The notes under the pieces: generated by a model
Databases searched by the model: none
The model's input: only the letters and a program-made list of their open reading frames with translations
Told to the model about the DNA's origin: nothing
NCBI GenBank assembly: GCA_963837465.1
Contig: CAWINB010000004.1
Span: 138,853-202,852, forward strand
Reading direction: 5' to 3'
DNA: 64,000 nt
DNA from: Candidatus Doudnabacteria bacterium
GTDB lineage: Bacteria > Patescibacteriota > Doudnabacteria > UBA920
In this document: in pieces, positions 5,269-48,759 of the stretch
How positions within the stretch are numbered: the stretch's first letter is position 1
How the letters are laid out: the number at the start of each line of letters is the position of its first letter
Made by a program: the position numbers and the translations under genes

Positions 5269-5817
5269 ATGCCCGAAAAACTTTTTCCAAGCCAGATGGA
5301 CAACGAGCAAATTTACCTCGTAGTGCGCGAGCACTGGGTACATTTGACGCTCAAACTTTTGGCTTGGGCCTTTTTCGCGGCTATACTGGTAATTTTTGAA
5401 CGCTGGGCCAATGCCAGCCTTCCGTCTCTGTTCCTGGGTACCTGGGGCGAAATCACTTTACTGTTTACGCAAATCTATACCCTGCTTTTGGTCATGGCGC
5501 TGTTTTTAATTATCGTTTTTCATTACCTGAATATTCAGGCCATCACCAATATTCGAGTGGTGGATATTACCCAGGAAGGCTTGTTTTCCCACACCATTTC
5601 CGAACTGCATATAGATAAAATAGAAGATGCCACCAGCCAGAGCAACGGGATTTTGGGCACGATTTTTGACTACGGCGATGTTTACGTGCAAACCGCGGGC
5701 ACGGCCGAACGCTTTGATTTTCACAACGTGCCCAACCCCGCCGGCATAGAAAAACTGGTACTGGATTTATACGAAAAAAATTCCAACGCCGCCAAGAACG
5801 CCGGCGCGGGAGCGTAA
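5269..5817 (+). CDS. membrane protein with bacterial PH-like (bPH_2/YdbT-like) domain
   Basis: internal ATG at 5269 follows an intergenic repeat array; two TM helices then a soluble domain (VVDITQEGLF...DYGDVYVQTAGT) like bPH_2. Confidence 0.5.
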   Translation: MPEKLFPSQMDNEQIYLVVREHWVHLTLKLLAWAFFAAILVIFERWANASLPSLFLGTWGEITLLFTQIYTLLLVMALFLIIVFHYLNIQAITNIRVVDITQEGLFSHTISELHIDKIEDATSQSNGILGTIFDYGDVYVQTAGTAERFDFHNVPNPAGIEKLVLDLYEKNSNAAKNAGAGA

Positions 5818-5847
5818 AATCCAGACAATTGACAATTAAGGTTAATC

Positions 5848-5883
5848 ATTTCCGCCAGAGGCGGATCCGCCTCTGGCGGAAAT
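5848..5883. repeat. perfect 36 bp palindrome centred on GGATCC (copy 1 of 2)
   Basis: atttccgccagaggcgga|tccgcctctggcggaaat; the left half is the exact reverse complement of the right half; second near-identical copy at 43111-43146. Confidence 0.9.
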
Positions 5884-5893
5884 CGTCAATCAT

Positions 5894-6328
5894 ATGAAAG
5901 TAGTAGCCATATCCGGAGGATTCGATCCTGTACATATAGGTCATGTGGAAATGATGAAGGAAGCCAAAGAACTTGGCGACAGACTGGTCGTGATTATAAA
6001 TAACGACAATTGGCTTACGCTAAAAAAAGGGTTCGTTTTTATGCCGGAGCAAGAGCGGGCCGAAATAATTAAAGCAATAAGGTACGTGGATGATGTAATA
6101 ATCACCAAGCACGAACCGGGCACCAAAGATATCTCTATTTGCAGAGAGTTGGAAGAGTTGAAACCCGACATCTTCGCCAACGGCGGCGACCGAAAGCCGG
6201 ACGGCGACCCTATCCCCGAAGTGGAGCTTTGCCAACGCTTAGGCATAGAGCTGGTTTACAACGTCGGCCACAGCGGCAAAATCCAAAGCTCCAGCGAACT
6301 GGTAAAAAAAGCCGCGAAAATGAAATAA
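5894..6328 (+). CDS. cytidylyl/adenylyltransferase-like nucleotidyltransferase (HldE domain II / TagD-like)
   Basis: 144 aa; N-terminal ISGGFDPVHIGH (HxGH nucleotidyltransferase motif). Confidence 0.65.
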   Translation: MKVVAISGGFDPVHIGHVEMMKEAKELGDRLVVIINNDNWLTLKKGFVFMPEQERAEIIKAIRYVDDVIITKHEPGTKDISICRELEELKPDIFANGGDRKPDGDPIPEVELCQRLGIELVYNVGHSGKIQSSSELVKKAAKMK

Positions 6329-20785: not shown

Positions 20786-20892
20786 CCGAATCAGCTTCAG
20801 AGAACCATTCCGAAGCGAAGCTGGGGAATCCCTTACAATCGCGGGATGTTTCCATAAGGGATCCCTCGGATGCGCTCAAAACAAAGCAAGCC

Positions 20893-21676: not shown

Positions 21677-21787
21677 GTTACTTAAGAGACACTTCATCGC
21701 GTTTCTAAGCGTAGGGGCCGAGATTGCTCGCCCGCGACTCCCGGGCGGCCAAAGCCAGCCCCTACAAAAGCCTCTTGATATGCCCGG

Positions 21788-42768: not shown

Positions 42769-42891
42769 TAAAATTAAATTAACTTATCAATTATAGCTAA
42801 AGAGGGCTTTATTTTCAAGTGGAGGGTCGTCTCGGTGTAGTTGCCCGATTTATCGGGCTTTGAGGCTCAATAAATTGAGCAACTACAAGCT

Positions 42892-43866
42892 TTGTTTCAA
42901 TGGTATCTCTTTACAAAATTCCCAAAACCCGCCAAACTTATAGATATGTTACTGGAAATTCCAAAAAATTTTTCGGACTTTGAGTTGATAGACACCGGCG
43001 ATGGTTACAGGCTGGAGCGCTGGGGGCAGGTTATTTTGGCGCGGCCGGATCCGCAAATTATTTGGCCACGATCACTACCGAGCGACCAGTGGAATTCCGC
43101 CTGGGCGGTTTTTTCCGCCGGAGGCGGATCCGCCTTTGGCGGAAAAAATAAAGCCGCCGGAGAAAAAGGCCGATGGGAAATAAAAAAACCAATGCCAAAC
43201 CCTTGGATTGTAAATTTTGATGATGTGAAATTTTTACTCAAGCTCTCTCCGTTTAAGCATACGGGCTTGTTCGCGGAGCAGGCCGCCCAATGGGAGTGGA
43301 TGTCGTTAAGGATAAAAGATTCCTCCTTCACTAAAGTTTCGGCGGACAAGAAAGGATTAAGGATACTAAACCTCTTTGCTTACACCGGCGGCGCGACAAT
43401 GGTTTTGGCCAAGGCCGGCTGGCGTGTTACGCATGTGGATGCTTCCAAGCCGGCTATAACCTGGGCCAATGAAAATCATAAATTAAATAACTTGCCGGCT
43501 GACTCTGTCCGCTGGATTTTGGACGACGCGGCAAAATTTGTCGGCCGGGAACTAAAAAGAGGTGCCAAGTATGATGCCATAATTATGGATCCTCCCGCTT
43601 TTGGTCATTCGCCCACAGGCAAGATTTGGAAATTTAACAATGACCTGCCGGGCTTGCTTGCCGACTGCGTTTCCCTGCTGTCGCCCGAAGCTAAATTTTT
43701 AATCATCAACGGCTACGCCACAAATTCCTCGGCCTTGTCTTTAAATAATTTATTGGAAGATGTAATTGCCGCCAAAGACGGTAAGATAGAATTTGGTGAG
43801 TTATGCCTAAAGCAACAATCCGAACGAATGATATCAACCGGAATATTCACCCGATGGAGTATTTAG
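42892..43866 (+). CDS. class I SAM-dependent rRNA methyltransferase (RlmI/RlmK-like)
   Basis: 324 aa; SAM-binding block NLFAYTGGATMVLAKAGWRVTHVDASK; IIMDPPAFG motif; contains an in-frame palindromic insertion (see repeat 43111-43146). Confidence 0.75.
   Translation: MFQWYLFTKFPKPAKLIDMLLEIPKNFSDFELIDTGDGYRLERWGQVILARPDPQIIWPRSLPSDQWNSAWAVFSAGGGSAFGGKNKAAGEKGRWEIKKPMPNPWIVNFDDVKFLLKLSPFKHTGLFAEQAAQWEWMSLRIKDSSFTKVSADKKGLRILNLFAYTGGATMVLAKAGWRVTHVDASKPAITWANENHKLNNLPADSVRWILDDAAKFVGRELKRGAKYDAIIMDPPAFGHSPTGKIWKFNNDLPGLLADCVSLLSPEAKFLIINGYATNSSALSLNNLLEDVIAAKDGKIEFGELCLKQQSERMISTGIFTRWSI
43111..43146. repeat. 36 bp GGATCC-centred palindrome (copy 2 of 2), inside the methyltransferase CDS
   Basis: ttttccgccggaggcgga|tccgcctttggcggaaaa; 32/36 identical to the 5848-5883 copy; encodes the Gly-rich segment FSAGGGSAFGGK in frame. 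Confidence 0.85.
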
Positions 43867-48685: not shown

Positions 48686-48759
48686 AATAGTAGCGTTTAG
48701 TGATTAGCGTATAGGGTTTAGTACTAGACGCTAATCACTAAACGCTAAACGTTTATCTT

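Follow-up and report, generated by a model that had tools for sequence, protein, structure and literature searches.

The window, that is, the whole stretch of 64,000 nucleotides analyzed here, comes from a genome whose proteins are most like those of Doudnabacteria. It contains a gene for a membrane protein with a bPH_2 domain (5293-5817, + strand), which is syntenic with ruvB in relatives, and downstream of it a gene for a cytidylyltransferase-like protein (CTP_transf_like; 5894-6328, + strand), called the nucleotidyltransferase gene below. Spacers of 4, 18 and 90 nt between the two genes in relatives suggest that they are co-transcribed. The spacer in the window is 76 nt long and holds a perfect 36-bp palindrome, ATTTCCGCCAGAGGCGGATCCGCCTCTGGCGGAAAT, at 5848-5883, which has GGATCC as its dyad centre and lies 30 nt after the bPH_2 stop (5817) and 10 nt before the ATG (5894). 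Both the sequence and the coordinates of the palindrome that the original prediction had placed between these two genes are thus confirmed. The left part of the spacer (5818-5850, + strand) is made up of degenerate short tandem repeats (GACAATT and TTAATCA), and the right part up to the ATG (5881-5893, + strand) reads AATCGTCAATCAT.

The palindrome consists of a 30-bp unit, TCCGCCAGAGGCGGA followed directly by TCCGCCTCTGGCGGA (5851-5880), and three complementary flank bases on each side. Each half of this unit is a mini-hairpin with the 6-bp stem TCCGCC/GGCGGA, the first (5851-5865) with the loop AGA and the second (5866-5880) with the loop TCT. As single-stranded DNA, the palindrome region folds with -20.6 kcal/mol (z = -8). 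A T-tract 3' of the palindrome is absent, the flanks being the reverse of a terminator (T-run upstream, A-run downstream), and a terminator scan gave no call there; an intrinsic (Rho-independent) terminator was therefore rejected, in line with the earlier view that the palindrome is not a canonical one. A known RNA family was rejected as well, since a search of the window against Rfam 15 found no match at gathering score and, at permissive settings, only chance-level miRNA-like matches (E ≥ 0.14).

The near-identical copy that had been noted inside a coding sequence is real. This copy, TTTTCCGCCGGAGGCGGATCCGCCTTTGGCGGAAAA at 43111-43146, is identical to the first palindrome at 32 of 36 positions, and the 32-nt pattern shared by the two occurs twice in the window and not once in 100 dinucleotide-preserving shuffles. 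The loop triplets of this copy, GGA and TTT, lack complementarity, which makes its palindrome imperfect. The corresponding 30-bp element (43114-43143) lies in frame within a gene for a class I SAM-dependent methyltransferase (42946-43866, + strand; PF10672, similar to PDB 2igt) and encodes SAGGGSAFGG in a variable loop of the protein. When the protein was aligned with PDB 2igt, its extra residues fell exactly at the palindrome, with a gap in 2igt at that loop, and in an alignment with the 45 closest homologs the 10-aa insert at this loop was confined to the window protein (homologs, ...WAIFxSA-SGSEKGKWEI...; window, ...WAVF-SAGGGSAFGG-KNKAAGEKGRWEI...). In the homolog P0107, this DNA element is found at another loop of the protein family, which indicates that the insertions are independent events.

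Two further observations concern this gene. The homologs P0003, P0004, P0006, P0019, P0027 and P0043 have other inserts at the loop encoded by 43114-43143, for example RGKHAES, ENRGNNAEPNAEKRGNW and TRGKIAEFNPASAQGYGGHSAEGRGNW, which read like translated palindromic DNA elements, and this surface loop may be a hot spot for palindromic inserts. In addition, the native coding sequence directly upstream of the second copy, TCCGCCTGGGCGG at 43092-43105, resembles one hairpin module; it encodes N-S-A-W-A, where homologs have D-K-A-W-A, and the likeness could be a coincidence, a remnant of an earlier event or a feature that favours insertion nearby.

An exact 30-bp unit of two tandem mini-hairpins

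To compare filled with empty sites in the intergenic case, the syntenic loci (ruvB, small ORF, bPH gene, nucleotidyltransferase gene) of the closest relatives were used. The palindrome was sought and found absent in the syntenic spacers of L121 (4 nt), L122 (18 nt) and L124 (90 nt). The spacer of L124, whose nucleotidyltransferase is 87% identical to that of the window, contains TTAATCG repeated five times. When positions 5851-5880 are removed from the window, the sequence reads TTAATCA, TTAATCG, TCAATCA, a periodic repeat of the L124 type with intact heptamers, and no other boundaries give this result; the element lies within TT/AA (slash, point of insertion) of a TTAATCR heptamer.

Coding copies are bounded in the same manner. 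The TsaD of the Komeilibacteria locus L108, compared with E. coli TsaD (PDB 4ydu), shows a gap of exactly 10 aa. A GH57 gene of Omnitrophota is filled in L084 (CATTC-TCCGCCAAAGGCGGATCCGCCTCCGGCGGA-AAAAAC) and empty in L247 (CCTTC/AAAAAC), with the two proteins 94% identical; formally, this difference could also be a precise deletion, and there is no flanking direct repeat to promote one. Four independent filled/empty comparisons gave identical boundaries, and a target duplication is absent in all four, so that the inserted unit is exactly 30 bp, TCCGCC-NNA-GGCGGA followed directly by TCCGCC-TNN-GGCGGA. Two Liptonbacteria UvrB genes at 89% identity have the insert in common. Given that the insert is polymorphic at 94% amino acid identity in one case and common to both genes at 89% in the other, copies can be recent and can also endure, and some, such as those in Liptonbacteria UvrB, are old and stable.

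Compared with E. coli TsaD, the TsaD gene of L108 (509-1600) contains three further short inserts, ETRHASSLL, ETQHAASLQD and GRDVACNVST, which look like a second family of hairpin elements in coding sequence. A different element of this sort is seen in an ArsA-family gene (L056, 4567-6603, minus strand), where residues 139-150, PARLASQGEAGG, are encoded by a 36-nt GC-rich imperfect palindrome, CCCGCCCGCCTTGCTTCGCAAGGCGAAGCGGGCGGG, that is absent from the 99%-identical P0286 of another sample. Presence or absence of another in-frame palindromic element here varies almost at the level of strains.

The consensus of 248 half-sites is tTtT-CCGCC-RRA-GGCGG-A, of which 97% have T at position -1 and 83% have it at position -3, and the flanks follow tTt/aAa, T-rich on the left and A-rich on the right. 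As the insert is 30 bp long, positions -2 to -4 represent the preferred target, roughly TTT/AAA. The 14-bp inner core, AGGCGGATCCGCCT, is conserved, and the two 3-nt loops are RRA and TYY. The loop bases are far more variable than the stem bases, and the loop dinucleotides differ between copies even within one genome. These dinucleotides are fully complementary in 26 of the 127 listed copies, compared with about 17 expected from loop composition. The perfect 36-bp palindrome of the window is therefore a minority state, and selection for a long perfect palindrome found no support, on this count and because variants keep the two hairpins.

Variant stems stay paired within each 15-nt half through double changes (CCCTCC/GGAGGG, TCAGCC/GGCTGA, CTCGCC/GGCGAG), and some of the variants are G-T (G-U) wobbles. 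In a 32-row alignment, a model of two hairpins had 94.8% of cells paired and double-sided changes in 8 of 12 pairs, while a model of one long hairpin had 85.9% paired and double-sided changes in 6 of 14; scored by how many pairs changed on both sides, 0 of 500 shuffles were as good as the alignment under the former and 24 of 500 under the latter. Because 2 of the 32 rows had been picked by structure, an unbiased test was run in which metagenomes were scanned with hairpin 1 only (TTTCCGCCNNAGGCGGA) and the downstream sequence was inspected. Among the 126 non-redundant listed matches, 64 continue directly into another hairpin, again of 6 bp in the stem and 3 nt in the loop. These second hairpins comprise 22 with the canonical stem, 15 with a single mismatch and 27 that pair perfectly through ten other stems (TCAGCC eight times, CCAGCC seven times, CCCGCC, TCTGCC and others). 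Permutation of the 3' arms gave a mean of 1.9 perfect hairpins and a maximum of 7 in 2,000 trials, against the 27 observed. In these 27 variants, the 3' arm pairs at 6 of 6 positions with its own 5' arm and at only 4-5 of 6 with the arm of hairpin 1.

The conserved feature is thus not the long palindrome of the original prediction; it has been shown to be two tandem 15-nt mini-hairpins, and a long perfect palindrome is the case in which the stems are equal and the loops complementary. The pairing pattern of the variants further indicates that the unit is a 15-nt module, YCNNCC-NNN-GGNNGR, and that these modules join two by two; they are also seen singly and in arrays of at least three. That the arms change in a coordinated way speaks for a folded nucleic acid, or for self-templated correction, and not for the half-site of a protein. 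Alternatively, the compensatory changes of the stems could have a mutational origin, in template switching inside the hairpin, and not reflect selection for a recognized structure.

One array deserves separate mention. At L026 (7390-7480), 4-5 tandem hairpin modules come directly after a sequence resembling the 5' half of a class II tRNA (GGAGGGATGGCCGAGTGGTTTAAGGCGG...). A tRNA-related origin was considered and rejected, as ARAGORN calls no tRNA there and the only tRNA of the window is unrelated.

Dispersal across genomes and within genes

A scan of GTDB, one genome per species, with the query CCGCCNNNGGCGGATCCGCCNNNGGCGG revealed exact copies in at least 118 loci of species-representative genomes, and a scan of metagenomes added at least 120 further loci. 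The original prediction had held that two copies only and no conservation in relatives would speak against it; the position is indeed not conserved in relatives, and the copies go far beyond two. Among the matches listed there are 127 exact copies, from at least 118 genome loci, two viral loci and the window. By the taxon labels of the deposited records, the listed carriers are mostly Patescibacteria, and the others belong to Omnitrophota, Kiritimatiellae, Lentisphaerae, Verrucomicrobiota, Planctomycetes, Ignavibacteriota, Chloroflexota, Margulisbacteria and more. All 118 of 118 listed carriers are metagenome-assembled genomes, among them 1.6-Mb contigs of Microflora Danica (MFD), and no cultured carrier is known. 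A phage or plasmid vehicle was rejected, since IMG/VR gave 2 matches in 2.9 million contigs and the PLSDB plasmids and INPHARED phages gave none.

The flanks of the element are unrelated between loci, except in one Kiritimatiellae genome, and no consistent distance of copies to gene starts was found. All-against-all BLAST of 1,960 ORFs from the 118 listed loci did not reveal a recurrent neighbour gene: no protein family occurs in more than five loci, the largest occurring in 5 of 118, and a linked transposase or other gene was rejected on this basis. Outside exact dimers, 24 single units were seen in the loci, of which about half are parts of variant dimers. The isolated ones form no pairs around a gene, by which a larger autonomous element bounded by half-sites was rejected, and no autonomous relative with identical ends was found. 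In the Kiritimatiellae genome (L006, 4569-4752 and 6390-6572; L052; L003), the element is one of the modules of a compound repeat, about 185 nt long, which includes ...gtcattccgagcg... as well and occurs at least four times; no gene goes with this repeat.

Gene context in the loci was derived from ORF logic instead of a gene caller. By this measure, 63 of the 127 listed copies are located well within ORFs that have 150 or more codons, and the ORFs holding the element are intact. Because 30 is a multiple of three, the reading frame is never shifted. A single phase, which reads S-A-x-G-G-S-A-x-G-G, is used by 56 of these 63 copies, and the remaining 7 are in phases reading P-P-x-A-D-P-P or R-R-R-I-R. 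We read this phase bias as purifying selection on the encoded insert, the alternative being a target phase preference. The proteins hit by such 10-residue Gly/Ser/Ala inserts include TsaD, UvrB, UvrC, CysRS and methyltransferases. In a phosphatase, six otherwise identical copies from different samples differ solely by F/L in loop 2, which fits the hypervariability of the loops and resembles a report on GC42 of yeast mitochondria (PMC4478555).

Origin of the element and its relation to known systems

We propose, at a probability of roughly 0.7, that the palindrome is a copy of a non-autonomous selfish insertion element composed of two tandem 15-nt GC-rich mini-hairpin modules and that, as part of the same estimate, the copy at 5851-5880 arose by insertion, specific to this lineage, into an intercistronic spacer rich in repeats. 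The stem of each module comprises 6 bp, follows the consensus YCNNCC/GGNNGR and is most commonly TCCGCC/GGCGGA; the loop has 3 nt. The element would be recognized as folded single-stranded DNA, either as two hairpins or as a cruciform, and an enzyme provided in trans would cut and join it. The transposases of the HUH/Y1 type (IS200/IS605, RAYT) are known movers of hairpin-ended DNA without duplication (PMC3733652). As this is the known way to insert such DNA, an HUH/Y1-type transposase is a candidate; another structure-specific nuclease or recombinase could also serve, and no mobilizing enzyme was found near the element in the 118 listed loci. The spread across phyla would need horizontal transfer of the element and presence of the enzyme in each host. 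Of the readings originally offered, a REP/RPE-like mobile palindrome holds in kind (precise 30-bp insertion, empty orthologous sites, more than 100 species, in-frame copies in genes) and not as membership, since the element is without a GTAG or CGTC tag and has 30 bp, not 100-150 bp; a recombination site could apply only in the sense of some enzyme cutting and joining at the element.

Among the other explanations, an unlikely one dispenses with transposition and invokes a host process, either DNA uptake driven by an uptake signal or templated insertion of hairpin oligonucleotides during the repair of TT/AA breaks. It would accommodate the lack of a linked transposase in the 118 listed loci, the absence of a target duplication, as in blunt-end joining, and halves with independent loops, as if two 15-nt hairpins had been joined separately. 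The cross-phylum spread mostly in uncultivated lineages also agrees with it, and natural competence has been proposed for Patescibacteria. However, uptake sequences are much denser (about one per kb), are lineage-specific and arise by codon choice, not by insertion. We know of no source of such hairpin oligonucleotides, which likewise counts against this process, and the recurrence of the stem variants TCAGCC and CCAGCC in many loci fits copying from existing elements.

It is also improbable that the palindrome is in essence an RNA-level intercistronic hairpin, acting in termination or in protection of the upstream mRNA, that tunes the ruvB-bPH-nucleotidyltransferase operon. Such a hairpin would be very stable and lies between two co-oriented genes, the G-U wobbles among the stem variants agree with folding as RNA, and the REP/BIME elements of E. 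coli, which have effects of the termination and mRNA-protection type, provide a precedent (see also PMC3733652). Against this stand the terminator-reversed flanks without a scan call, the lack of an Rfam match, the operons of relatives that do without the element and the presence of the same element inside coding regions. A stable hairpin 10 nt before a start codon may still affect the message, and since relatives lack the element, any effect on neighbouring genes would be a by-product, as with REP elements; an RNA-level effect of that kind does not account for the origin or distribution of the element.

The operator for a dimeric regulator that the original prediction had also offered fares worse. 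A dimeric DNA-binding protein (transcription factor, partition or nucleoid protein) recognizing duplex GGCGGA/TCCGCC would suit the perfect dyad symmetry, the position 10 nt upstream of a start codon, the strongly conserved inner core AGGCGGATCCGCCT and the conservation across phyla, which is also a property of parS. However, the three syntenic relatives (L121, L122, L124) have no such site in their spacers, about half of the copies are 10-aa insertions in unrelated genes, the distance to gene starts is inconsistent, no neighbour gene recurs in the 118 listed loci, and the stem arms change together in a compensatory manner that a protein half-site model does not predict. We regard this reading as distinctly unlikely and already largely refuted. 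Least credible is an artefact of library preparation or metagenome assembly (linker, chimeric junction): every listed carrier is metagenome-assembled, GGC GGA TCC, which encodes Gly-Gly-Ser and contains a BamHI site, is reminiscent of synthetic linkers and the listed literature matches to GGCGGATCCGCC are eukaryotic, viral or cloning-related studies, but the MFD contigs and variable loops make it very unlikely, as do dozens of independent studies and assemblies, covarying stems, a consistent flank preference, the same insert in several samples of one population and in species at 89% identity, and in-frame inserts in intact ORFs.

The selfish element was then compared with known families. Since it failed the defining features of each, it is not filed as a member of any; by analogy, its closest structural counterparts are the double-hairpin elements (DHEs) and GC clusters of fungal mitochondria, and its closest functional ones REP/BIME, Rickettsia palindromic elements (RPEs) and PARCELs. 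The mitochondrial elements (Allomyces, Schizosaccharomyces, yeast GC42) are short, GC-rich and made of one or two hairpins. They are dispersed in AT-rich spacers and occasionally inside genes, have identical or near-identical copies across species with differences concentrated in the loops, and are suspected of mobility with no known enzyme and of modular hairpin merging (PMC10085805, PMC4478555). The present element shares the GC-rich adjacent double hairpin and the loops that are more variable than the stems. In contrast, it resides in bacterial chromosomes of several phyla, and the relation is by analogy only; it has 30 bp without duplication, whereas GC42 has 42 bp and an AG target-site duplication, and about half of its copies, instead of occasional ones, lie in long ORFs, mostly in frame.

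REP/BIME sequences are imperfect palindromes of 20-40 bp, often arranged as inverted dimers and in some cases located in genes, and they are thought to be mobilized as single-stranded hairpins by an HUH tyrosine transposase without target duplication (PMC3733652). The present element resembles them as a 30-bp dimer of two head-to-head 15-nt hairpins. It differs in having T-run and A-run flanks (248 half-sites) in place of the GTAG or CGTC tag and in occurring as 2 copies in 64 kb, with about half of all copies in long ORFs, whereas REP/BIME are high-copy and mostly extragenic. No RAYT-like gene recurs near the element in the 118 listed loci. Moreover, REP families are described per species or genus (PMC3733652), while nearly the same 30-bp sequence is found across phyla. 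RPEs share the in-frame insertion into protein genes (here the methyltransferase, TsaD and GH57 genes), but they are about 100-150 bp long, restricted to Rickettsia and have a CGTC end, in contrast to 30 bp, TCC...GGA ends and a cross-phylum range.

PARCELs (palindromic amphipathic repeat coding elements) are palindromic DNA that can be read in both orientations to give a tolerable peptide, and they have a horizontal distribution over unrelated microbes (PMC2996958); the likeness lies in these properties. They are much longer, encode amphipathic helices and form tandem arrays within genes, chiefly those for surface proteins of Mollicutes, unlike the single 10-aa inserts in housekeeping enzymes described here. 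A non-autonomous nature with a transposase supplied in trans would also be shared with MITEs and with the PATEs derived from IS200/IS605. PATEs have two sub-terminal hairpins and cause no duplication; they exceed 100 bp and carry guide and cleavage tetranucleotides outside the hairpins, whereas the present element has nothing beyond its two hairpins. MITEs (reviewed in PMC10969869) possess terminal inverted repeats and a target duplication, and the latter is absent at the GH57 and heptamer-spacer sites. No published description of the 30-bp element was found in full-text literature, in a searched set poor in subscription journals.

What is notable among small palindromic selfish elements is the size, the modular 15-nt build, the frame-neutral length and the cross-phylum spread. 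More tentatively, we speculate that 15-nt hairpin modules, usually paired into 30 bp, might be the smallest bacterial mobile DNA seen, with no gene and no ends beyond the hairpins. Their insertion would be TT/AA-like and without duplication, a length divisible by three would open essential genes to them, and they would cross phyla (Patescibacteria, Omnitrophota, PVC, Ignavibacteriota) by means of a shared host structure-specific ssDNA enzyme and not a dedicated transposase; this broader proposal is possible and we hold it to be rather doubtful.

If the selfish-element reading is true, the compact genomes of uncultivated bacteria carry mobile DNA that repeat finders miss because of its small size and that gene-based surveys of mobile elements do not see. 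It would explain odd low-complexity inserts in metagenome-predicted proteins, provide a marker of cross-phylum DNA exchange in metagenome-sampled habitats such as groundwater and lake water, and offer the 30-mer as a concrete substrate for an enzyme search. To our knowledge, the mechanism of the mitochondrial double-hairpin elements has been unknown for 25 years; the parallel suggests a general way for hairpin DNA to spread, for the study of which many bacterial genomes are available. The palindrome at 5848-5883 should not be annotated as a regulatory site.

Finally, other repeats were observed alongside the element. Degenerate short tandem repeats form spacers and some N-terminal or loop coding segments (window, 5818-5893; L124, 2292-2381; L061; L004; L037; L245, 1560-1620), with repeats such as TTAATCG five times in L124, ctttcaccttctaac five times in L061 and cctacag in L004, and the element often lies inside such tracts. 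The window itself has further intergenic palindromes at 48691-48751 (24-nt arms, 96% complementary), at 42836-42887 (23-nt arms, between tRNA-Leu and the methyltransferase ORF) and at 20814-20876 (containing GGATCC, upstream of a RuvC-like ORF). At 21711-21765 there is also an imperfect palindrome with a GTAG tag, GTAGGGGCCGAGATTGCTCGCCCGCGA/TCCCGGGCGGCCAAAGCCAGCCCCTAC. It lies downstream of a small acidic ORF, has the appearance of a classical REP-type element and is unrelated in sequence to the 30-bp element.
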